Virus record (IMG/VR): IMGVR_UViG_3300046542_000168
Coordinates: 32,001-96,000 of that record
DNA: 64,000 nt
DNA from: a virus
Reading direction: 5' to 3' (one strand)
Shown here one piece after another: positions 2,663-43,732 of this stretch. Numbering within the stretch: the stretch's first letter is position 1; every line of letters starts with the position of its first letter. The position numbers and the translations under genes are program-made. Below the pieces are notes generated by a model. It had not been told where the DNA came from. It did no database searches and saw only the letters and a list, made by a program, of their open reading frames with translations.

Positions 2663-3734
2663 CCCCGATCAGTTTCCACACGTTACCGTCTTTCTCGAAG
2701 TTCCAGTACTGCTTGATGCGAATAGCACCAGTACCATCGTCCAACTTAGCCTCAAACAATACGGAACCACGCAACTTGCCTTGTTCTACTACAACGTCGA
2801 TTGTTCGGTGCTCAAACATCAAGACCTTCGACGGAGCGGACAAACACTCTTCTACCGGCAAGTACTTGGTGTTAGCTTCTACCCAGGTAGCGTCATCGCT
2901 GTGCTTCTGGAATTCGTAGAAGATTGCCATCGCTCTTGAATCGAGGTCATCAAACTCTGATGGACCTTTAGGCGACAGGTCGAACTTTTCCTTGATCTTC
3001 CCTTCTACTCGGTCACGTACTTCTTTTTTACGACCAAGAGTTACCAACTTGTAAATCCCATAACCGATTGCACCAACAACGCTCAAGAAGAAAGCCAGCT
3101 TGATGACGAACCACAGGGCACCCCACAGAGCGCCGAAGAACGAGAATCCCGATTCCTGAGGTTGCTGTTGCTGCACGATCACTACTGGCTGTTGCTGCTG
3201 TTGCGATTGTGGCTGGTAGTATTGCTGTGGTGCCGCCTGGGGAGCCTGCTGTACGGGTGCTGCTACCGGTTGGCCCTGCTGGTTGAAGTACTGCCCAGGG
3301 TATTGCGGGTGGGTAAACATGCCAGCATGACCGGGGCTGCTAATCAGTGCGGTAATTGCACTTGCGGCCAAGATCCCGCCACCAACGCCTGCGGCAGTTA
3401 CACCGATGTCCCGCATGGTGGAGCTTTGGCGCGGCTGGTTGTACGAGTTGCTACGGTAGTTGTTATCGCTGTAACCGCTGTTGTAGTTGCTCTTGTAGCC
3501 ACTGTTGTTACTGCTGCCAGAGCTGTAGCTTGAGCTTGAGCTACTAGACGAGTACGAAGGCGTCTTGTAAGTGGTAGCCGGTTTACTATACGAAGTAGTA
3601 GCTGGCCGACTGTAAGAGCGGGAAACACCGCTAGAACCACGCGAACCACCAAACGCCGCAAAAGTGACATCAGTAAAAACGACCATACCCATCGCAAGCA
3701 GCGGTACAAACAACTTCCTCATTTTCATATCCAT
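2646..3734 (-). CDS. Membrane protein with signal peptide, low-complexity linker and Tim44-like C-terminal domain
   Basis: Signal peptide, GGSRG/S/Q-rich region, TM helix, C-terminal QYWNFEKDGNVWKLIGVEQ typical of bacterial Tim44-like proteins. Confidence 0.7.
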   Translation of the reverse strand: MDMKMRKLFVPLLAMGMVVFTDVTFAAFGGSRGSSGVSRSYSRPATTSYSKPATTYKTPSYSSSSSSSSYSSGSSNNSGYKSNYNSGYSDNNYRSNSYNQPRQSSTMRDIGVTAAGVGGGILAASAITALISSPGHAGMFTHPQYPGQYFNQQGQPVAAPVQQAPQAAPQQYYQPQSQQQQQPVVIVQQQQPQESGFSFFGALWGALWFVIKLAFFLSVVGAIGYGIYKLVTLGRKKEVRDRVEGKIKEKFDLSPKGPSEFDDLDSRAMAIFYEFQKHSDDATWVEANTKYLPVEECLSAPSKVLMFEHRTIDVVVEQGKLRGSVLFEAKLDDGTGAIRIKQYWNFEKDGNVWKLIGVEQDD

Positions 3735-5493: not shown

Positions 5494-5960
5494 TAATTGT
5501 CCATTTGCGTAATAAAGTTTAAATCGTCCATGCTCAACTCTGTGTACTCGTCCCCGTGTTGTAGCAGAACTCGCACACCGGCATTCAGGAAGTGGGCCAG
5601 CCCTTCTGTTGTTCGGTAGAACTCCTTAAAGACAAACTCCTTAATCCCCGCGTCCACAATATCTACCGCACACAGATAACAACTCGAATGCGTACAGAAC
5701 ATCGTGGCACCAACGGCGCTCTCAGAAGACCTTACAAGACCCATAAGAGCGTTCTTCTCGCTATGCCGTACCTCTGGCTTAGTTTTGTCGTTGCTGTCCT
5801 CCAGCGGCCCGTGTAGGTGCTCAGGAAGAGCGTTATACCCACACGAGATGATACGGTTGCCTTTAACAATCACCGTACCTACTTTCAGACGTTCTCCAAC
5901 ACTGCAACCAGCGAAAGCGTGAGCACATGACATATAAGCGTGCATGTGTTTGAGCTTCAT
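5493..5960 (-). CDS. dCMP deaminase
   Basis: KVGTVIV..GYN, HSEKNA, CYLC zinc motif. Confidence 0.9.
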   Translation of the reverse strand: MKLKHMHAYMSCAHAFAGCSVGERLKVGTVIVKGNRIISCGYNALPEHLHGPLEDSNDKTKPEVRHSEKNALMGLVRSSESAVGATMFCTHSSCYLCAVDIVDAGIKEFVFKEFYRTTEGLAHFLNAGVRVLLQHGDEYTELSMDDLNFITQMDN

Positions 5961-8744: not shown

Positions 8745-9134
8745 TCACTTCTTAAGCGGAACTCCTTTCACCTTAGATACACGCTTGTGCATACGGATCA
8801 ATGCAGTAGATGCAGTGCCCATATCCAGTGGATACTTAGGGTTCTCGAAAATGCTCTTGAAGTTGTTTGCCATGCGACTGATAGCCATGACGTTACCAGG
8901 GACGTAGCCCTTGGTATTGTCGATGCGGTCGATGGTGATGTCTGTGGGCCTCGGTGTGCTCAGGCTGGGCTTAGTCATAAGCACTCCTGTGTAAGGGCAC
9001 ACCGTGCAACGCATCATGTTTCGGAAGCTAACTAGGCTGATTGCCCAGTTAATGTTTCGCTCGCTAGCGGAGCGGGACTTGCCTATGTAGTATTCAGCGA
9101 CAAAGCGCTCAAACTCGGCGGAAATGAATTTCAT
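8745..9134 (-). CDS. Conserved phage protein, HNH/His-Me-finger-like
   Basis: CPYTG...TIDRIDNTKGYVPGNV motif. Confidence 0.65.
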   Translation of the reverse strand: MKFISAEFERFVAEYYIGKSRSASERNINWAISLVSFRNMMRCTVCPYTGVLMTKPSLSTPRPTDITIDRIDNTKGYVPGNVMAISRMANNFKSIFENPKYPLDMGTASTALIRMHKRVSKVKGVPLKK

Positions 9135-9168
9135 GGTCTTACTGACTTCCTGACTTACTTACTTACAG

Positions 9169-9447
9169 TTAACGAGTGAATCGGCCTGTCTCAGAGTCAC
9201 GCTGACGCACACCAACTAACCCGAATGGGGTGTCTTGCCATACTTCAGCTACAAGCTTGTGGACGTACCGAGTCTTACCACCCAGGCATACGCGGTGATA
9301 CCGAAGCTCAGGTTTGTCCGGTTGCGGAGTGATGCTGGAGGCAGTGAGGAACCGTCCGGTCCTCGTGCTCCACACCCGGCCATCCTCAGTCACATAGTGG
9401 TGAGGGAAGCCCTTGCATTTCCGTACCTCTACATCCGGCAAGATCAT
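9169..9447 (-). CDS. NUMOD4-like DNA-binding domain protein lacking the HNH nuclease part
   Basis: GFPHHYVTEDGRVWS...YHRVCL...YVHKLVAEVW, then ends. Confidence 0.65.
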   Translation of the reverse strand: MILPDVEVRKCKGFPHHYVTEDGRVWSTRTGRFLTASSITPQPDKPELRYHRVCLGGKTRYVHKLVAEVWQDTPFGLVGVRQRDSETGRFTR

Positions 9448-11329: not shown

Positions 11330-11358
11330 TTGACAAATCGGAGAAGCCATGGTATAAA
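11330..11358 (+). promoter_or_regulatory. Strong sigma70 promoter
   Basis: TTGACA-17 bp-TATAAA with extended TG. Confidence 0.75.
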
Positions 11359-11428
11359 CCCCGACTTCTTCGATTTGTTTTCTCTTACACTAAGCCGATT
11401 TTCTTCCACACTTTCTCAACTTTCCCTG

Positions 11429-11456
11429 TTGACAGGAGTTGAAAGTCGTGTAGTAT
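11429..11456 (+). promoter_or_regulatory. Second sigma70 promoter; its -35 lies within an imperfect inverted repeat
   Basis: TTGACA-16 bp-TAGTAT; flanked by CTTTCTCAACT...AGTTGAAAG. Confidence 0.6.
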
Positions 11457-11537: not shown

Positions 11538-12152
11538 GTGACCCAGATTTCCGTAACTCGTGCTCTCGCCCAGGTTAAGAGCCTGAATGACCGCATTCAA
11601 CGTGGCACCGTAGCACAGTTCATCGCAATTGCCGTAGGTGGTAAGGTTTCCGGTAAGTCCTCTGTTCAAGAGGCAGAGCAAACCGTTACTAGCAACCTAC
11701 AGTCCGTCCAGGGCCTAATTGCCCAGCGGAACACCCTCAAATCAGCCATCGTCAAGAGCAACGCGACCACTACGGTGTCGATCGCCGGTAAAGTCATGAC
11801 TGTGGCTGAGGCCATCGAGCGTAAGTCCTCGATCATCCTCGAACACAACCTACTCCAGCAGATCCGTGGCCAGCAGAATCAAGCCATTGCTGCTGTAGAT
11901 CGCCACAACGTCGATGTACGTCAACGCTGTGACAATCTCCTGGCCCAGGCTTATGGCCGTGACGTGAAGATCAGCGAGGCCGACAGTCAGGCTATCACCG
12001 GCCCATACGAAGAGAAGCACAAAGCTGCTCTGGTAGATGCGAACAAGCTGGACACTGTTATCGAAAAGATGCAGGCCGAGTTGGACGCTTTTACCCTGGA
12101 AGTAGACTTCGCCCTGAGTGAAGTAAACGCTAAGACTCTGATCGAAGCGTAA
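11538..12152 (+). CDS. Coiled-coil protein, DIP1984/DUF6847-like
   Basis: ISVTRAL..., AIVKSNATTTVSIAG..MTVAEAIERK, EVDFALSEVNAKTLIE; CDS is clear, family assignment is from recollection. Confidence 0.7.
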   Translation: MTQISVTRALAQVKSLNDRIQRGTVAQFIAIAVGGKVSGKSSVQEAEQTVTSNLQSVQGLIAQRNTLKSAIVKSNATTTVSIAGKVMTVAEAIERKSSIILEHNLLQQIRGQQNQAIAAVDRHNVDVRQRCDNLLAQAYGRDVKISEADSQAITGPYEEKHKAALVDANKLDTVIEKMQAELDAFTLEVDFALSEVNAKTLIEA

Positions 12153-12166
12153 CACAGTTCAAACAA

Positions 12167-12480
12167 GTTTTCTCTTGTGACAGCGAGTTGTCTTAACTTA
12201 GCTGGGCTTCTAGGGGTGAGCCTATCACCTCTAACAATTACTGGCATGTAATCATAAACGACCAGTCCCGCCATTTCTGGGACATATCCTTCGTAGGGAT
12301 TTTAAGCAGTGACTAAGTTCATCGCTCAACGTTTAACCAGTAAAGATGCAACGCTCAACGAAGAAACTTTTAAACAGGTAACTTCTAAAGGCCAAAGCTT
12401 CTAAAATCCCAGAACAAGGTTGAGTAGTGGTTAGCTATCGACTCTGACGACGCCCTGGGCTGCTGTTCACAAGAAACCCA
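12167..12480 (+). ncRNA. Putative ~310-nt structured RNA with a 7-nt-periodic internal loop
   Basis: Terminal stem TCTTGTGACAGC(12173-84)/GCTG-T-TCACAAGA(12462-74); inner stem GGGATTTTA(12296-304)/TAAAATCCC(12402-10) enclosing ~13 YAA-core units. Confidence 0.65.
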
Positions 12481-12484
12481 TTAT

Positions 12485-12560
12485 AGAGGATTGGCGAAGT
12501 GGGAACGCTACGGGCTTTGATCCCGTCATTGACTAGGTTCGATCCCTAGATCCTCTTCCA
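12485..12560 (+). tRNA. tRNA-Gln(TTG)
   Basis: Cloverleaf, ACGGG-CTTTGAT-CCCGT, encoded CCA. Confidence 0.9.
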
Positions 12561-12722
12561 CATTCGAAGTATCGTTGAAAACTACGGTTGTCTACGCGCA
12601 AACGCCGGACTTCGAACTCTACATACCTGGGAACTCAAGCGCCTTGGTTTGTACAATCCACTCGACCAACCGGATGGATTCAGACGCATGGGATCGTCTC
12701 TAACTTATCCCTACCTATTTCT

Positions 12723-12798
12723 ACCCAGGTAGCTCAACTGGCAGAGCAGCGGCCTCCAAAGCCGTTGGTTGTAGGTTCGACTCCTACCCTCGGTGCCA
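12723..12798 (+). tRNA. tRNA-Trp(CCA)
   Basis: Cloverleaf, GCGGC-CTCCAAA-GCCGT, CCA. Confidence 0.92.
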
Positions 12799-12802
12799 CT
12801 TC

Positions 12803-12878
12803 GCAGATATAGATTAAACGGATAAATCACGCGGCTTTCAACCGCACGTTCCGAGTTCGATGCTCGGTATCTGCACCA
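12803..12878 (+). tRNA. tRNA-Glu(TTC)
   Basis: Cloverleaf, CTTTCAA loop, CCA. Confidence 0.9.
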
Positions 12879-12900
12879 TTATTCAAGTTAAGGAAGACTC

Positions 12901-13044
12901 ATGGCTCAGAAGCCTTACGATGCAACTAAAGAACACACCCCGTTCGACCGTACCCGTAAAACAGATGGGAAAGGTCGTCACCCTAATAAGGGGTTGAGTT
13001 CGAAGCACCCGGTGTCGGGCAAGAAGAACCGATACTTCGAATGA
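12901..13044 (+). CDS. 47-aa basic microprotein
   Basis: Not in the track; AAGGAAG SD; MAQKPYDATKEHTPFDRTRKTDGKGRHPNKGLSSKHPVSGKKNRYFE. Confidence 0.6.
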   Translation: MAQKPYDATKEHTPFDRTRKTDGKGRHPNKGLSSKHPVSGKKNRYFE

Positions 13045-13180
13045 TTCCACCAGGGAGGCTATAGGGGTCTTATGACCGCTCCCCGCTGCTGAGGCTACTC
13101 AGTTGTCCCGATGACAGGCAACAGCGTCCTACCCGCTCCCTGGAGCGCTGAGGCACTAGAGAATAGTGCCGTTTATATTC

Positions 13181-13256
13181 GCATTCTAAGCTAACCCGGT
13201 GAAAGCGACGGATTGAAAATCCGTAGAGACTGGTTCGACTCCAGTAGATTGCACCA
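13181..13256 (+). tRNA. tRNA-Phe(GAA)
   Basis: ACGGA-TTGAAAA-TCCGT, T arm, CCA. Confidence 0.9.
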
Positions 13257-13398
13257 TAACAATGAGAACCAGGGTACTGGTTGAGTAGCAGCCCATGGAG
13301 CCGCCAAAGGCGCTGGGCCCGGTTCATTGTTGTACTGTACGCACTGGCCAGCGTACTTCGCGTTTACGGTAGAGGTCGCAAACCGCTTTATTTTCCCT

Positions 13399-13475
13399 AC
13401 TGGTATAGTTCAACTGGAAAGAGCATCCGCCTTCTAAGTGGTTAGTTGGGGGTTCGAATCCCTCTACCAGTGCCA
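13399..13475 (+). tRNA. tRNA-Arg(TCT)
   Basis: Cloverleaf, CTTCTAA loop, CCA. Confidence 0.92.
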
Positions 13476-13523
13476 GATATGCAAGAAAGTTGTAGAAAGT
13501 TCGAACTATTTTCATATTGCCTA

Positions 13524-13552
13524 TTGACAAAATAGAAAAGTGTGAGAATATT
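13524..13552 (+). promoter_or_regulatory. Internal sigma70-like promoter in the tRNA cluster
   Basis: TTGACA-17 bp-AATATT in an AT-rich gap. Confidence 0.5.
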
Positions 13553-13610
13553 CACGGACTCGAAGTTACCTTCGACTGAATTACCCCTCTTGTATGTAGT
13601 TCCCCTCTTA

Positions 13611-13686
13611 GCCTAATGATTCCTCTGGGAAGGAAGACGCACTGTCGATGCGTTCGCTGCGGTTTCGAATACCGTATTAGGCGCCA
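13611..13686 (+). tRNA. tRNA-Asp(GTC)
   Basis: ACGCA-CTGTCGA-TGCGT, CCA. Confidence 0.85.
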
Positions 13687-13691
13687 TATTT

Positions 13692-13769
13692 GCCCTTGTA
13701 GCTCTTAACTGGCAGAGCAGCCGCCTTGTAAGCGGACGGTTGGGAGTTCGAATCTCTCCTGGGGCACCA
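13692..13769 (+). tRNA. tRNA-Thr(TGT)
   Basis: Cloverleaf, CTTGTAA loop, CCA. Confidence 0.92.
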
Positions 13770-13776
13770 TATTCTT

Positions 13777-13852
13777 TCCGGTATAGCTCAGTTGGTAGAG
13801 CAGCGGCCCGATAAGCCGTTTGTCACTAGTTCAAGTCTAGTTACCGGGACCA
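13777..13852 (+). tRNA. tRNA-Ile(GAT)
   Basis: GCGGC-CCGATAA-GCCGT (C33), CCA. Confidence 0.88.
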
Positions 13853-13857
13853 TCTAT

Positions 13858-13931
13858 GGGCTGTAAGAATTACGACAGTTCGCCTGCCTTGCACGCAGGA
13901 AGCCAGGGTTTGACTCCCTGACGGTCCACCA
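13858..13931 (+). tRNA. tRNA-Ala(TGC)
   Basis: CCTGC-CTTGCAC-GCAGG, G3:U70, CCA. Confidence 0.88.
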
Positions 13932-13999
13932 TTACAAATGCAGAGACTTACGGCTTATGTCGTTACAAGTCAAACCGGGGATATGCACCCCTTTACAAT

Positions 14000-14081
14000 A
14001 GCGAGAGAGTTAAGACTGTCTGGTGATGTCGCCCGGCTCATAACCGGCTGCTTTGTGGTTCGATTCCACCTCTCGCCACCA
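14000..14081 (+). tRNA. tRNA-Met(CAT), initiator-like
   Basis: CTCATAA loop, 1:72 A-C mismatch, CCA; enlarged D region. Confidence 0.8.
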
Positions 14082-14085
14082 TATT

Positions 14086-14174
14086 TGAAGAGAGAACCTG
14101 GGTTCAAGTCCCTTGTCTCGGAAGGCCCGCCTGTATAACAGGGCTGATAGCTTAGTGGATTAAAGCGCTCTTCA
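14086..14174 (+). ncRNA. Circularly permuted tRNA-like RNA (T arm before D arm; YrlA-like topology)
   Basis: TGAAGAG/CTCTTCA closing stem; GGG-TTCAAGT-CCC first, TA-GCTT-AGTGGATTA-AAGC last. Confidence 0.65.
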
Positions 14175-14245
14175 TCTCACACACTGGGTTGCTCCCCATG
14201 TGAACACTCGCCACAGAGTGTATAAATAAGTGTGGCACGATCAAT

Positions 14246-14322
14246 TGGACATAAGCTAACTAGGCGGAAGCGGGTGGCTGTTAACCACCAGATGCTAGGT
14301 TCGAATCCTAGATGTCCAGCCA
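14246..14322 (+). tRNA. tRNA-Asn(GTT)
   Basis: GGTGG-CTGTTAA-CCACC, CCA. Confidence 0.92.
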
Positions 14323-14438
14323 ACTTTGCGACGTGAGGTTTTATGCCCACGATCCTTCCAGGGCTTACCTGGGAGAGATGAGAGTCGCGCATTAAGCTGT
14401 CTGCTAGGCCCGGACGTTAAATGGGCGACAAGATCAAT

Positions 14439-14514
14439 ACCCCGATGGCTGATCGTCTTAGGCAATCGCCTGCAAAGCGATATCAGGCTGGTTAGATTCC
14501 AGCTCGGGGTTCCA
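14439..14514 (+). tRNA. tRNA-Cys(GCA)
   Basis: ATCGC-CTGCAAA-GCGAT, U73, CCA. Confidence 0.9.
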
Positions 14515-14522
14515 GTTATAAA

Positions 14523-14608
14523 GGTCGTTGTAGAGTCAGATGGCTACTGACAGGGCGCTGTAAACGCCCCGCTTCTGCTAGAGGTTCAATTCCATCCTTC
14601 GACCACCA
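14523..14608 (+). tRNA. tRNA-Tyr(GTA)
   Basis: GGGCG-CTGTAAA-CGCCC, variable arm, CCA; imperfect acceptor stem. Confidence 0.78.
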
Positions 14609-14694
14609 ATTTGCCGTATAGGTGCCATACCCGAAAGCATTCGTGCAGTGAGGGCAGGTTATCGTCCCCTTCCCAGGGCGGCAGACGCGAGAAT

Positions 14695-14771
14695 GAGACG
14701 TTGGCCGACCGGCGCTAGGCAACAGGCTTTTAACCTGTATTAATCTGGTTCGATTCCAGAGCGTTTCACCA
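14695..14771 (+). tRNA. tRNA-Lys(TTT)
   Basis: ACAGG-CTTTTAA-CCTGT, CCA. Confidence 0.9.
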
Positions 14772-14776
14772 ACAAT

Positions 14777-14844
14777 GGAGGGTCCGCTGGGACGGGACTA
14801 CTGAAGAAGTAGAGAGTGTGGTTAGAATCCACTACCCTTCGCCT
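14777..14844 (+). ncRNA. tRNA-like element/pseudo-tRNA with a 5-nt anticodon loop and no CCA
   Basis: GGAGGGT/ACCCTTC acceptor, CTACT-GAAGA-AGTAG, GTGG-TTAGAAT-CCAC. Confidence 0.6.
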
Positions 14845-14849
14845 TATAT

Positions 14850-14937
14850 AGTAGATTGACCGAGAGGCCGATGGTAGGGGATTGCTAATCCCTACGGTGT
14901 AACAGCCGCACAGGTTCGAATCCTGTATCTACTGCCA
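14850..14937 (+). tRNA. tRNA-Ser(GCT)
   Basis: TTGCTAA loop, long variable arm, CCA. Confidence 0.92.
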
Positions 14938-15042
14938 TATTCCAGGCAAACAAAAGCCGCCTTAGTAGGGCGGCTCTTGACAACGAACTCTACCGTTCAT
15001 TGTAGGTGGGATGCACTGGCGTACTCCGAGGGGAATCCTATC

Positions 15043-15348
15043 ATGTGGACGAATGGCCGACAAGGCACCGGGTACGCGAAACTAACGCTCCTAGCCACCT
15101 CCAGGCTCGACTGTCACGTTTTACGATATATGCCTGGGGATAGCATTCCATCTCACACAGATAAGCTTGTGGACGGCAGGAAGCACTTCAGGATGAACAT
15201 CCGGCTAGCCGGTGAAGACACTTTCAAGTGCTGCAAGGTATTGTTTAGATTCTGGCGGGTTACGATCTTCCGACCGGACCTCTATGAGCACTCAGTACCG
15301 GCAGTAAAGAGAAAACGATACATGCTCAGCATCGGCTGGGTAATATGA
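15043..15348 (+). CDS. 2OG-Fe(II) oxygenase superfamily protein
   Basis: GAGGGG SD before ATG 15043; HTD...EHSV...RYMLS (HxD..H..R motif). Confidence 0.78.
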   Translation: MWTNGRQGTGYAKLTLLATSRLDCHVLRYMPGDSIPSHTDKLVDGRKHFRMNIRLAGEDTFKCCKVLFRFWRVTIFRPDLYEHSVPAVKRKRYMLSIGWVI

Positions 15349-15353
15349 TACAA

Positions 15354-15438
<85 letters not shown>

Positions 15439-15490
15439 TTTACAACGATTGAAGGTTGAGCCTATCGCTCCCTCTCGTTACAACGAATAC

Positions 15491-15578
15491 GGCGTGTAGG
15501 CTCCATGGGGAGATGCGGTCTTGAAAACCGTCCCATTGCAGAGATGTGGTGAGGGTTCGATTCCTTTATGCGCCTCCA
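15491..15578 (+). tRNA. tRNA-Ser(TGA)
   Basis: GCGGT-CTTGAAA-ACCGT, long variable arm, CCA. Confidence 0.88.
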
Positions 15579-15680
15579 ACTTAACGCACGAGACTGGAGG
15601 CTGAAATGCCCGTGCGATCCGGCCGATACGGCTCCCAGCCTTGAGCGGGTATGAAAGGATAATGCCTGTAACGCACAAAC

Positions 15681-15703
15681 AAAAACACCGCCTTTCGGCG
15701 GTG
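15681..15703 (-). terminator. Intrinsic terminator of the mvaT-like gene
   Basis: CACCGCC-GAAA-GGCGGTG-TTTTT on the minus strand. Confidence 0.75.
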
Positions 15704-15723
15704 CTCAGGAACGCAAGTGAAGA

Positions 15724-16113
15724 TCAGCCCAGGATAGTTACCCAGCTCTCTACGGACTCATTACCCCACTTCGCTTTCCACTCTTTCAGAGTCTTGTGGT
15801 TGCCACCTTTCGTCTCGATGACTTCGCCGTTGTGCGGGTTTTTGTACTGCTTAACGTGACGCTGACGACGAGTAACGGAAGAGGATTTATCAGAAGCCTG
15901 CTTCGAAGACTTACCGCCGTGGCGACCGTCTGGGTCCATAATACCCAGGATGTCTTTCAACGACTTGCTATATTCGCCCATCAAGCTACGCAGCTTACCT
16001 TCGAATTCCAGTTCTTCTTGCAATTTACCGTCCGACTGGAGGGTAGCCATGCGGGCCTGGAGTTCTTTAATTGCGGCTTCTGTAGCGCGGTATTCAGCAA
16101 TAACTGACGACAT
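15724..16113 (-). CDS. mvaT: MvaT/TurA-family H-NS-like xenogeneic silencer
   Basis: EYRATEAAIKELQAR..ELEFEGKLRSLMGEYSKSL; YKNPHNGEVIETKGGNHKTLKEWKAKWG. Confidence 0.93.
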   Translation of the reverse strand: MSSVIAEYRATEAAIKELQARMATLQSDGKLQEELEFEGKLRSLMGEYSKSLKDILGIMDPDGRHGGKSSKQASDKSSSVTRRQRHVKQYKNPHNGEVIETKGGNHKTLKEWKAKWGNESVESWVTILG

Positions 16114-16207
16114 ATTTGCGTTCCCCATGGGATGTCTGTGTGATGTGTCAGAGGATATACACGGCTTATTATTATGTAAAGCCCTTAGTGTAAAAGTTTT
16201 TTAAAAT

Positions 16208-16284
16208 CTCGCTGTAGCTCAGATCGGTAGAGCGCCTGCTTTGGGAGCAGGAGGCCGGGGGTTCGATGCCCTCCAGCGTGACCA
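16208..16284 (+). tRNA. tRNA-Pro(TGG)
   Basis: CCTGC-TTTGGGA-GCAGG, CCA. Confidence 0.92.
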
Positions 16285-16299
16285 TATTAAGATGTAGTC

Positions 16300-16374
16300 G
16301 TGGGGCCGTGCTGCCTGGATGTAGCCATCAGGTTGTGACCCTGTTGTCGGAGTTCGAATCTCCACCTCACCCCA
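16300..16374 (+). tRNA. tRNA-His(GTG)
   Basis: TTGTGAC loop, C73, CCA; no encoded G-1. Confidence 0.8.
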
Positions 16375-16379
16375 ATTTA

Positions 16380-16456
16380 GCGTGCTTCGTATAGCCAGGT
16401 TATTACCTCCGGCTTCCACCCGGATGACAACAGTTCGAATCTGTTAGCCCGCACCA
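16380..16456 (+). tRNA. tRNA-Gly(TCC)
   Basis: TCCGG-CTTCCAC-CCGGA, CCA. Confidence 0.88.
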
Positions 16457-16460
16457 ATTC

Positions 16461-16534
16461 GCTCGATTAGCTCAATGGGAGAGCAGAGCCCTTACAAGGC
16501 TTTTACGGTGGTTCGATTCCATCATTGAGCACCA
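16461..16534 (+). tRNA. tRNA-Val(TAC)
   Basis: GAGCC-CTTACAA-GGCTT, CCA. Confidence 0.92.
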
Positions 16535-31400: not shown

Positions 31401-32097
31401 TAGCGCCTTCCACCAATATATCGAAGACGGTCAGAACTACGCTCAGATGACGAATCAGGCGTTCACAAGTGCCTTTACAGGTATGGAAGACGCACTGGTT
31501 AACTTCGTTACAACTGGCAAGCTCTCCTTCGCTGACCTAACTAAATCCATCCTCGCTGATATGGCACGTATTGCTGTCCGCATTGCTGCGTCTAGAGCGC
31601 TTATGGCGATCTTCCAGGTATGGGGTGGACCTAAGACTGCTGATACGGCTTCGATGAACAGTGCTACAGCTTATGGCGACGGCATCGCAGCGGCGAAAGG
31701 TGCGGCCTTCGACGGCGGTACTCAGTACTTCGCTAAAGGCGGATCGTTCACCAACTCAATCGTAAGTAAGCCTACATCGTTCGCTACCAACAAGAGCAAC
31801 AACAATGTAATGGGTGAAGCTGGGCCAGAGGCGATTATGCCGCTGACTCGCTCTGCCGATGGTTCGTTGGGTGTTCGTGCTTCGGTCGATGTATCTGGCC
31901 TACAGCAAGGTGGAGGAAGTGGTGTACAGGTTTACATCACTGTTGACGGTCAAGGGAATACGAAAAGCTCAGCTACTGATTCTGGCTACTCGTCGTTCGG
32001 TAATGATGTTGGTCAGTTTGTTGACCAGCGTTATAAGCAACTCATCAGCAAAGACCTACAACCCGGTGGCGACATCTGGAAGTCAATGCAATCTTAA
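28486..32097 (+). CDS. Tape measure protein
   Basis: 1203-aa helical protein; LPAQFTDIAVSLQGGQ, lambda-type C-terminus, MGEAGPEAIMPL. Confidence 0.95.
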   Translation: MTYIANLQIKVDSTEVESATDKLHELIQASKGLGNSPLSKPLPPVKPPPQPKQPKSSPDDKSADKLLAQIDKQTGSLQKLTKQQSMLNQARDAGTVSDDSFAKYNQIIETNKKAVLDRGNVVEQASKKEIAAEQARLDAWYKSADGRKTVDSEYLDSLAKGSQARQKRVAEEDASERQRLDSWFANADKQKKAEAKDIEDRHSALATASKDRIKQEAAAQKARDAIDKAKKDSTLAASKADDDAAAKAELASKKRQKALDDEAKGLQNLLAAIDPVTKERQRLAKLEAELEKNYSSGKITEQQRGQYQSVIDEARQKTDRYKNSLGRTALTAKQLQMAQAGLPAQFTDIAVSLQGGQAPLTVFLQQGGQIKDMFGGTVPAIKGVTSAFVGLINPITILGATVLALGGIWYDAERRMSALNAAIYKGNELVGTSKFGLEVIAEGATVAGNSVAEAQEAITALAATGEVSSSRLANFGKAAQAIAVTSGKDISAVAEEMATLGDTATEKAEKLSEKYAIVTAEQYETIRALEKKGETEEAMDVLSSSLAGNAQERLQRYRDSLSDLERDWMDVKTAISNAYGAVRAELFPDLNDEITQLQRIIKTRKEGGVTGTISSFLGFGDNSDEALSQQLQSLINRRDFKNKYDAEVARRNQANKEVVESEKKLFKDLEKAGKTVKKNEYLEDLNKEFDSLVENAKTLKTIPKLLEGVTWTTEGGYKGGAYDTLKAEAERKFKEKQPKTPKSAILDNTDANEFQNQVNEVKARYKSMNEDIIQAQNAGTISMAAGVTKRKALLEQEATQVKDAYEKQIASLEALKGSKNISANQVISIDRQIADARSKMVVAQEESEKQLKKLAGDEETRLKKQSQAISAYAENLNQMVKNLEVAGQRQRAALSMSSGQAGLQDQLSSEDDRYNEEQRTLTLQLGEAGRDQTEVIANLRASAAAHTAMKKQIVTNYEEMKAAQADWGAGVSSAFHQYIEDGQNYAQMTNQAFTSAFTGMEDALVNFVTTGKLSFADLTKSILADMARIAVRIAASRALMAIFQVWGGPKTADTASMNSATAYGDGIAAAKGAAFDGGTQYFAKGGSFTNSIVSKPTSFATNKSNNNVMGEAGPEAIMPLTRSADGSLGVRASVDVSGLQQGGGSGVQVYITVDGQGNTKSSATDSGYSSFGNDVGQFVDQRYKQLISKDLQPGGDIWKSMQS

Positions 32098-42880: not shown

Positions 42881-43732
42881 ATGGCGTGGTATAACGCTGG
42901 CACATTAACTGCCACAAACAACAGTGCAACTATTACAGGGGCTGGAACGCTGTTTCTTGCTAATGTGAGTGTTGGGGACGGTGTAACTATCGCGGGTAGC
43001 ACGACTATTCATGAAGTTACTAACGTTGCCTCTAACACACAACTTAGCATCTCCCCTGTTTACACCGGCACAACGGGATCGAGCAAGACTTATTCTATTA
43101 TCCCTGTCCAGGGATATGTAAGAGACTTAGCCAATCAAGCTAAACAACTCATCCTCACCTTCTCTACCGTAGGCTCTAGTGTCAGTGTTGGTGCATTAGC
43201 TGGCATTACGGGGGCTGCTGACATGATCCCCTACTTTACTTCCGGCTCGACAATGTGGACTACTCCACTCACATCTCAGGCACGTAGTCTATTAGCCAAT
43301 ACAACAGCAGCTAATATGCGTACAACTCTCGGATTAAAGGCTGCCGCTCTGGCAGACATCACTGGAACTGTCTCTCAATCTGGGGGCGTTCCAACTGGTG
43401 CGGTAATTGAGTCTGGCACCAATGCCAACGGCTTTTATATCAAGTGGGCAGACGGGACGATGATCTGTCGTCAAATTAGTGGCTCGACAGTAACAAACAA
43501 CGCTGGAGCAGGTGGCATCTACTATTCCAACGGAGTTGGATTCACCTATCCGGTAACATTCGCCGGTAACGTTCCGTGTGTGTCATTGAGCGCTCTAACC
43601 GCAAATGGTTACTTCTGCTCGACTGCTGTAGAGGGACCGACCACTACAAGCGGAATTGTCTCACGACTTACCTCGTATATTCCTACAGCCACAGGGTACG
43701 TGTGTTACATCGCCGTTGGTCGCTGGTATTAA
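42881..43732 (+). CDS. Tail fibre protein 3 (paralogue)
   Basis: Same architecture; AVGRWY end. Confidence 0.85.
   Translation: MAWYNAGTLTATNNSATITGAGTLFLANVSVGDGVTIAGSTTIHEVTNVASNTQLSISPVYTGTTGSSKTYSIIPVQGYVRDLANQAKQLILTFSTVGSSVSVGALAGITGAADMIPYFTSGSTMWTTPLTSQARSLLANTTAANMRTTLGLKAAALADITGTVSQSGGVPTGAVIESGTNANGFYIKWADGTMICRQISGSTVTNNAGAGGIYYSNGVGFTYPVTFAGNVPCVSLSALTANGYFCSTAVEGPTTTSGIVSRLTSYIPTATGYVCYIAVGRWY

Follow-up and report, generated by a model that had tools for sequence, protein, structure and literature searches.

The 64,000-nucleotide (nt) stretch of DNA analysed here, referred to as the window, spans positions 32,001 to 96,000 of the IMG/VR virus record IMGVR_UViG_3300046542_000168. 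The record is 107 kb long and carries terminal repeats, and the closest named relatives of the window are Pseudomonas phages of ~95-100 kb, e.g. ventosus, Bitten and the phiPsa374 group. Our subject is a cassette composed of a gene for a 204-amino acid (aa) helical protein and, directly downstream on the same strand, an RNA of about 300 nt that carries tandem 7-nt repeats (heptamers) and is followed by 18 tRNA genes, all on the plus strand (window 12485-16534, identified with ARAGORN). This RNA represents a new and widespread pseudoknotted family, in which a near-invariant array of 7-nt repeats is almost always paired with one protein family. The principal elements of the locus are as follows.

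11429-11456, plus strand: sigma70-like promoter (TTGACA-16-TAGTAT) upstream of the cassette, from a promoter scan
11538-12152, plus strand: gene of the 204-aa helical protein, phrog_1491, with an invariant MTVAEAIERK motif (open reading frame list, profile match and alignment)
12173-12474, plus strand: whole structured RNA from the first to the last pair of helix P1, starting 20 nt after the stop codon
12485-12560, plus strand: tRNA-Gln(UUG), the first of the 18 tRNAs

A reading made earlier from the letters of the window alone (the sequence-only reading) had described a 204-aa open reading frame (ORF) behind two sigma70 promoters and an RNA ending just before tRNA-Gln. The ORF and the tRNA are where it had placed them. 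One of the two promoters is the strong site listed above, but the second (TTGACA-N17-TATAAA, near 11331-11359) is visible by eye and was not called by the scanner. Neither a promoter nor a terminator was called between the gene and the RNA in the window, which suggests that the two are made as a single transcript, in which case a ribosome terminating on the gene would reach P1. As no terminator was found between the RNA and tRNA-Gln either, cleavage by RNase P at the 5′ end of the tRNA would set the 3′ end of the RNA.

The RNA folds into a pseudoknotted core

Comparison of homologous loci resolved the RNA into the following elements, where "core" refers to an alignment of 18 sequences.

12173-12185 with 12461-12474, plus strand: P1, 13 pairs with T12467 bulged; 8 pairs changed on both sides, 97% paired (core)
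12187-12192 (GTTGTC) with 12446-12451 (GACGAC), plus strand: P2, from the core alignment and distant members
12199-12204 with 12432-12437, plus strand: P3, long-range; both-sided changes in 6 of 6 pairs (core)
12205-12208 with 12219-12222, plus strand: S1, forming a local H-type pseudoknot with the S2 loop; 3 of 4 pairs covary (core)
12211-12218 with 12226-12233, plus strand: S2 hairpin; both-sided changes in 7 of 8 pairs (core)
12234-12310, plus strand: variable domain with lineage-specific hairpins, from the alignments
12313-12400, plus strand: heptamer tract, about 10-11 units of the UYAAAGN type, predicted to be unpaired, from periodicity and alignment
12408-12412 (CCCAG) with 12455-12459 (CTGGG), plus strand: P5 pseudoknot; 99% paired (core)
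12418-12422 (GGTTG) with 12439-12443 (CGACT), plus strand: P6, enclosing the 3′ strand of P3; weakly supported

Seven proposed helices were tested on the core alignment. Standard pairs occupy 93.8% of its cells, compared to 73.7 ± 1.1% with shuffled partners and 36-47% when the pairing is slid by 1-3 columns. Both-sided changes are found in 31 of 47 pairs, and the covariation score is 0.62, against 0.25 and ~0.1 in the controls. A covariance model built from the nested helices only, in which P5 was not encoded, matched 58 phage or metagenome loci and 29 of 40 genome loci over its full length. In 32 distant members that were not part of the seed, P1, P2, P3 and S2 are paired in 96.5%, 96%, 94% and 89% of cases, respectively, and S1 is weak (58%). 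P5 is 92% paired in these members even though it lies outside the model, compared to 28-55% when slid. A regular-expression check of the 164 sequences (of 207 collected) in which its motif could be located found CCTAG/CTAGG, CCATG/CATGG, CCAAG/CTTGG and others, amounting to more than 12 combinations of pair types across the family. In copies found on bacterial chromosomes, 91.7% of cells pair (51.7% when shuffled) and both-sided changes occur in 32 of 33 pairs, in an alignment that was fitted to the covariance model and hence leans towards structure.

As P5 crosses P2 and P3, and P6 crosses P3, the 3′ domain constitutes a pseudoknotted core threaded by the 5′ strand. The invariant G-U pairs and the plus-strand terminators identify the plus strand as the strand of the RNA.

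The sequence-only reading had recognized the pairing of the RNA ends, which is P1 and covaries in the 18 core and 32 distant homologues, as well as the helix TAGGGGTG(A)/(T)CACCTCTA, which is real, covaries and corresponds to S2. Its remaining helices did not survive comparison. The 9-bp stem 12296-304/12402-10, thought to close a loop around the repeats, is disrupted in L036, the closest relative, and missing elsewhere, and its 3′ arm instead supplies the CCCAG strand of P5; ACTGG/CCAGT is also lost in L036, and AGCTGGGC/GCCC..GGCT and GAGT/ACTC are not conserved. We found no evidence for the proposed switch by alternative pairing of TTCTGGGA, which is part of a local hairpin in the variable domain. 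Another alternative, pairing of the 5′ strand of P2 with GCAGU just before the heptamers, is 93.5% paired against 91.2% when shuffled and shows one both-sided change, and we claim no switch.

The length of the RNA varies between about 260 and 375 nt across the family, and its 3′ end is either an intrinsic terminator or directly a tRNA gene. The DNA that follows the gene is conserved in ventosus and Bitten, where its flanks differ and where it ends in an intrinsic terminator, not in a tRNA. In line with the earlier impression that the RNA matches no recognized family, the covariance models of Rfam 15 gave no match at E ≤ 1 to window 12153-12484 and none at E ≤ 0.1 to ten diverse RNAs, including those of T5 and Bacillus; the families tested included tmRNA (transfer-messenger RNA), ROOL, GOLLD, OLE, raiA and YrlA.

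The variable domain accommodates tRNA-related sequences in some lineages. Between S2 and the heptamers, one RNA contains a tRNA-like sequence with acceptor, D, anticodon and T arms (L178:3713-3787) and another a tRNA-Thr(UGU) with an encoded CCA (L159:3738-3814). If RNase P and RNase Z excised these sequences, the RNA would be left in two pieces joined by P1-P3. In one clade (L124, L126, L127, L129, L230), the same position of the domain is taken up by a hairpin whose sequence is that of a canonical T arm (GGTTCGAATCC or GGTTCAAATCC).

The heptamer tract is conserved in a 7-nt register

An alignment of 202 RNAs shows seven units at an exact 7-nt spacing, a 12-nt break and three more units, followed by AAAUC and P5. 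The consensus of these 7 + 3 units is U1-Y2-A3-A4-a5-g6-n7, with per-unit frequencies of 0.82-0.99 for U1, 0.95-1.00 for A3, 0.73-0.95 for A4 and 0.58-0.85 for G6; position 2 is mostly a pyrimidine, A or C occupies position 5, and position 7 is unconstrained. The conservation of U1 and A3 spans sequences from Pseudomonas phages to Bacilli, and a hairpin inserted in the middle of the tract is tolerated in some lineages.

The periodicity noticed in the sequence-only reading is real. The Fourier spectrum of the window tract peaks at 7.5 nt with a power of 5.2, compared to 1.9 ± 0.4 for shuffled sequences, none of which reached 5.2 in 2000 trials, and the peak lies at 7.0-7.75 nt in 121 of 123 homologues. 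That reading counted ~13 heptamers in a loop closed by a stem. The repeats are 7-nt periodic and mostly unpaired as described, but they number about 10-11 and are set within the pseudoknotted core formed by P1-P3 and P5.

The tract of the window is also an open frame of 31 codons and its repeats are direct, so that it could be taken to encode a small peptide or to consist of DNA-level iterons. The conservation profile, however, has a power of 3.21 at period 7 and of 0.01 at period 3, and the longest open frame over the tract is split 74/73/53 among the three frames, from which we conclude that the 31-codon ORF is incidental. Stop positions and insertions or deletions vary among homologues, L036 has an indel in the tract, and seven of the seven changes between the window and L036 are non-synonymous. 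Furthermore, the flanking helices use G-U pairs that exist in the plus-strand RNA only. Both the coding and the iteron readings are thus effectively excluded, and conservation acts at the level of the heptamer and not of the codon.

Conservation of a heptamer in unpaired RNA implies a partner that reads its sequence, and the product of the adjoining gene is the only constant candidate encoded nearby. On the strength of these sequence comparisons, we give an even chance to the proposition that the protein and the RNA form a ribonucleoprotein (RNP) in which the heptamer array is the platform for multivalent binding of the protein.

The gene and the RNA form one conserved cassette

To follow the pairing of the two elements, relatives of the protein were gathered from IMG/VR, JGI metagenomes and GTDB genomes, and the DNA downstream was searched with iterated nhmmer profiles. 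Of 127 distinct phage or metagenome loci, 124 have the RNA core downstream on the strand of the gene; the core likewise follows 80 of 80 homologues from bacterial genomes. A scan of IMG/VR for the heptamer pattern that was blind to the protein returned 36 loci with profile matches; 28 of them could be assessed as genuine RNAs, and 27 of these 28 have the gene directly upstream. Scans of IMG/VR with exact patterns were uninformative, as a 14-mer gave mostly chance matches and a 30-mer with Ns gave none. An apparent exception in phage Bitten (PV037721.1, L002:1749-2849) is due to annotation: a 362-aa minus-strand ORF and a 30-aa ORF were called over what is in truth a 204-aa plus-strand gene and its RNA. 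The proposal that the gene and the RNA downstream are one conserved unit with a terminal helix and a 7-nt periodic, mostly unpaired tract thus holds across more than 200 homologues, which have kept the RNA.

The distance from the stop codon to the first P1 pair has a median of 10 nt and does not exceed 26 nt in 52 of 58 loci, and many homologues have, immediately before the gene, a promoter-like site of their own together with a strong Shine-Dalgarno sequence. With such a spacing, a terminating ribosome would touch P1 of the co-transcribed RNA, which could then be a pure cis element of the 3′ untranslated region (UTR) that stabilizes the upstream mRNA or controls its translation termination and has no function in trans. 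The size of the RNA (about 300 nt), its two or more pseudoknots and its near-invariant repeats far exceed the needs of known 3′ stabilizers, however, and the RNA outlasts most of the protein sequence in evolution, so that we regard a role confined to cis as quite improbable.

In the Bacillus pumilus group, the whole 5.6-kb locus is syntenic with 87-89% identity. In comparisons with B. paralicheniformis and B. haynesii, as well as among Lysinibacillus and Solibacillus, the homology shrinks to ~0.9 kb containing the gene and the RNA. In Bacillota, the two therefore travel jointly as an autonomous cassette of ~0.9 kb. The flanks of the chromosomal copies are unrelated to one another and include an amino-acid permease, a subtilase, a two-component sensor, AbiEii, TOTE primase, SUKH and IS3. 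Three of these surroundings resemble variable or defence-island neighbourhoods.

L296:4037-5611: TOTE conflict-system primase beside a chromosomal cassette
L287:4157-5053: AbiEii-like nucleotidyltransferase beside a chromosomal cassette
L335:3528-4720: IS3 transposase beside a chromosomal cassette

With its two parts, its autonomy, its movement between phages and chromosomes, its position beside AbiEii, TOTE primase, SUKH and IS3 and its repetitive RNA, the cassette is reminiscent of a type III toxin-antitoxin pair, in which the RNA would neutralize or sequester a harmful helical protein as part of a selfish or abortive-infection module. Alpha-pore-forming toxins do occur among the weak Foldseek matches of the protein, but these toxin-like matches are insignificant (E ≥ 0.2) and the fold is not that of an endoribonuclease. 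Moreover, PADLOC has no matching model, the order of gene and RNA is opposite to that of type III systems, and the repeats are 7 nt long and not about 36 nt. We consider such a pair unlikely.

In phages, same-strand tRNAs are located within 3 kb of the cassette in 34 of 60 loci and often begin right after the RNA. The link to the tRNA array perceived in the window is thus frequent, but it is not obligatory, since the chromosomal copies in Bacillota have no tRNA neighbours. This association, the two RNAs with a tRNA inside and the exact complementarity of AUCAAAG to the anticodon loop of the tRNA-Gln downstream in the window could mean that the heptamers (N-AA-A-G) pair with the anticodon loops for NAA/NAG codons (Gln, Lys, Glu) and scaffold or sequester the tRNAs. 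Position 5 of the heptamer, however, is often C (CAACG, CAGCG) and would not pair with U33, which in the tRNA U-turn is normally not free for pairing. The identity of the neighbouring tRNA varies (Gln, Cys, Asn, Lys, Met, Ile), and the chromosomal copies lack such neighbours altogether. A tRNA-directed RNA has very little to recommend it on balance, marginally less than a cis element.

The tRNA array of the window holds further features. A 47-aa ORF at 12901-13044 matches phrog_11200 (E 2e-23), a conserved small protein. Within a gap that has no ARAGORN call, 14003-14076 matches the tRNA-Sec model weakly (28.7 bits, E 0.014) and may be a degenerate or unusual tRNA. Additional gaps of 150-300 nt occur within the array, e.g. 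12561-12722 and 13932-14245.

The cassette is widespread and present in T5

The protein was found by tblastn in 745 phage records, which comprise T5-like phages of Salmonella and Escherichia, phages of Pseudomonas, Vibrio, Bacillus and Klebsiella, Erwinia jumbo phages, Lactococcus 949 phages, and phages of Aeromonas and Clostridioides. The gene and the RNA occur together in more than 200 examined loci.

The homologue in T5 is T5.085, and the RNA fills an unannotated 363-nt gap after this gene (about AY543070.1 complement 43143-43493). Inspection by eye reveals an 18-bp P1 (L202:3145-3162 with 3478-3495), the heptamers and a P5 of CCUAG/CUAGG; P2 and P3 could not be placed in T5-like RNAs, to which the covariance model gave a local match only. 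Across 440 T5-like records, all except two contain this stretch with an identity of 90% or more, and it nearly always lacks an annotation. Many records of T5-like phages have small "hypothetical proteins" called across the RNA. The T5 record also annotates "RNAX, stable RNA with unknown functions" (AY543070.1 40848-41566, L202:5072-5624) ~1.6 kb downstream, so that the tRNA region of T5 has at least two non-tRNA RNAs. No description of the gene or the RNA came up in literature searches on T5.085, DUF6847, heptamer-repeat phage RNAs and T5 stable RNAs.

The protein is predicted to form a helical bundle

The phrog_1491 profile matches the 204-aa protein over its full length (residues 1-203, E 2.2e-65). 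The label of this group in PHROG, "tail fiber protein", is unsupported because the gene sits in early or tRNA regions (T5.085) and on bacterial chromosomes free of phage neighbours. No Pfam, NCBIfam or PADLOC threshold was reached, and no PADLOC family was matched at E ≤ 1. The likeness to DIP1984/DUF6847 that the sequence-only reading had suggested falls far below family cut-offs: PF20935 scores 11.5 bits against a cut-off of 27 (E 0.31) and NF038048 14.2 bits against 70. Since 3kdq is met with a profile E of 0.21 and a Foldseek probability of 0.57, and 16% of the members of one ESM Atlas cluster are DUF6847, the sequence and structure scores leave room for a remote kinship of the protein to DIP1984/DUF6847.

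An AlphaFold2 (AF2) model computed from a 35-sequence alignment (predicted local distance difference test score, pLDDT, of 87.9) displays five long helices and a small β-sheet, with the invariant MTVAEAIERK motif at a strand-to-helix junction. Foldseek found nothing in the PDB at E ≤ 0.001. The top score of the VIA wide structure search was a Z of 9.2, to bundles of the syntaxin type, a value that does not rise above the noise among helical proteins, and searches of BFVD and the ESM Atlas returned uncharacterised family members and hypothetical proteins only, respectively. Prediction of a 3-copy homo-oligomer gave a score of 0.50, and one unrelated control scored 0.59.

A model for a proposed heptamer ribonucleoprotein

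Combining these observations, we propose a new class of RNP, in which the helical protein polymerises or forms rings in a 7-nt register on an array presented by a pseudoknotted RNA and acts in phage-host conflict or in tRNA and translation biology, and we assign this model a probability of about 0.4. The cassette is found in T5-like, Felix-like, Vibrio, Bacillus and jumbo phages as well as on Bacillota chromosomes. A promoter would drive the gene of the helical protein, with the transcript running on into the pseudoknotted RNA. This RNA holds out the 7 + 3 single-stranded heptamers, framed by the stacked P1-P2-P3 and the pseudoknot P5. Several copies of the cognate protein would bind the array in a 7-nt register, and the structured core would fix the geometry of the array and protect the RNA ends. 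One could speculate that each subunit of a ring or filament takes up one heptamer. The protein may be loaded in cis, as its own mRNA contains the RNA as the 3′ portion. The location of the cassette in virulent phages, often within tRNA arrays, and in isolated chromosomal islands by conflict genes fits an RNP of conflict or translation better than one of housekeeping.

Several observations weigh against this model. The protein has no recognisable RNA-binding fold, its matches in the PDB being generic helical bundles, and is near neutral (median isoelectric point 6.6). Autoregulation via heptamer-like sites in the 5′ UTR of the gene was considered and rejected, because the motif is not enriched there (0.26 against 0.21 per 72 nt), which also tells against a protein that reads heptamers. 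The 32-kb fragment with one of the RNAs (L382) contains no gene for the protein: at L382:755-2420, a 471-aa zinc-ribbon-rich ORF abuts the 3′ half of the RNA (heptamers and P5) and replaces the usual gene and 5′ half, so that this locus may be an insertion or a decayed copy. Finally, bare tandem heptamer arrays are found in unrelated phage contigs that have neither the protein nor the structured RNA, a hint that another factor could read the motif.

L437, ~9108-9186, minus strand: bare heptamer array, GTCAAAG x10, intergenic
L463, ~5594-5686: bare heptamer array, TTCAAAG/GTTAAAG, intergenic
L478, ~1183-1264: bare heptamer array, CTCAAAG/TTCAAAG, intergenic

No homologue of the protein is encoded in the first of these contigs, which is rated as complete.

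These bare (TCAAAGN)n arrays lead to the main rival explanation, namely that the array is a sponge or decoy that titrates a widespread host RNA-binding protein or ribonuclease, and that the adjacent protein folds, stabilizes, processes or regulates the RNA. A motif that is invariant across hosts from Pseudomonas to Bacillus would suit a universal target, and a protein without a known RNA-binding fold would suit an accessory role. On the other hand, the gene is almost always there and tightly spaced, chromosomal copies that are syntenic across the B. pumilus group would titrate the cell's own factor, and we know of no candidate factor with a 7-nt register. We thus rate the sponge as rather unlikely, albeit ahead of all other rivals, and retain the RNP of RNA and cognate protein as the preferred model.

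In its breadth of distribution, the RNA equals many named bacterial RNA classes, yet it has no Rfam entry and its partner has no Pfam family. The persistence of near-invariant U1 and A3 in an unpaired 7-nt register, from phages of Pseudomonas to Bacilli, implies that RNA is recognized in a new way, and the placement of the RNA in phage tRNA arrays, sometimes with a tRNA inside it, bears on the role of stable non-tRNA RNAs in these regions. Because the cassette is carried by tractable organisms (T5 and its 440 close relatives, the B. pumilus group, Lysinibacillus and Brevibacillus), its function is directly testable. The analysis also corrects existing annotations: the "tail fiber protein" label, the spurious ORFs over the RNA and the false minus-strand gene in Bitten.

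Comparison with known systems

The closest parallels in RNA design are the targets of TRAP (trp leader) and HutP (hut mRNA) in Bacillus, in which a homo-oligomer recognizes short, regularly spaced repeats in unpaired RNA. The repeats are 11 (G/U)AG for TRAP and NAG-N4 for HutP, the latter likewise with a 7-nt period; the RNA described here has evenly spaced unpaired repeats of this kind, with seven exact 7-nt units and three more. The TRAP and HutP targets, however, are regulatory mRNA leaders and the proteins are small β-rich rings encoded elsewhere, whereas here a helical bundle (in the AF2 model) is encoded right before a pseudoknotted stand-alone RNA of ~300 nt, its putative binding target. 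CsrB/RsmZ sponge RNAs also hold out many copies of one short motif for a protein, but their GGA motifs are displayed in hairpin loops at irregular spacing and the gene of their partner CsrA lies elsewhere.

Type III toxin-antitoxin systems (ToxIN, CptIN, TenpIN) are likewise autonomous cassettes of a protein and a repetitive RNA found in bacteria, plasmids and phages. In these systems, the RNA comes first and its repeats of ~34-36 nt are processed by an endoribonuclease toxin. In the cassette described here, the RNA comes second, its 7-nt repeats are part of one large fold, and no ToxN-, CptN- or TenpN-type PADLOC model matches at E ≤ 1.

tmRNA and SmpB resemble the cassette in that an RNA of about 300-360 nt with end-closing helices and pseudoknots around an unpaired "message-like" tract is served by a small dedicated protein. 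Neither ARAGORN nor Rfam found a tmRNA in the window, and the 3′ tails of the RNA differ between homologues; unlike tmRNA, the RNA lacks a tRNA-like acceptor and T-arm domain at its ends, and neither a CCA nor a tag frame is conserved.

RNAs of unknown function that are abundant or structured have been described within phage tRNA regions, including ROOL, GOLLD, T4 species 1/2 and phage K lnc001/002 (PMC9241854). Phage K lnc001 and gp233 were examined as possible relatives and show no similarity to the RNA or the protein. The heptamer RNA shares its location in phage tRNA regions with these RNAs and with T5 RNAX, but differs from all of them in having a dedicated protein gene upstream and a heptamer array.

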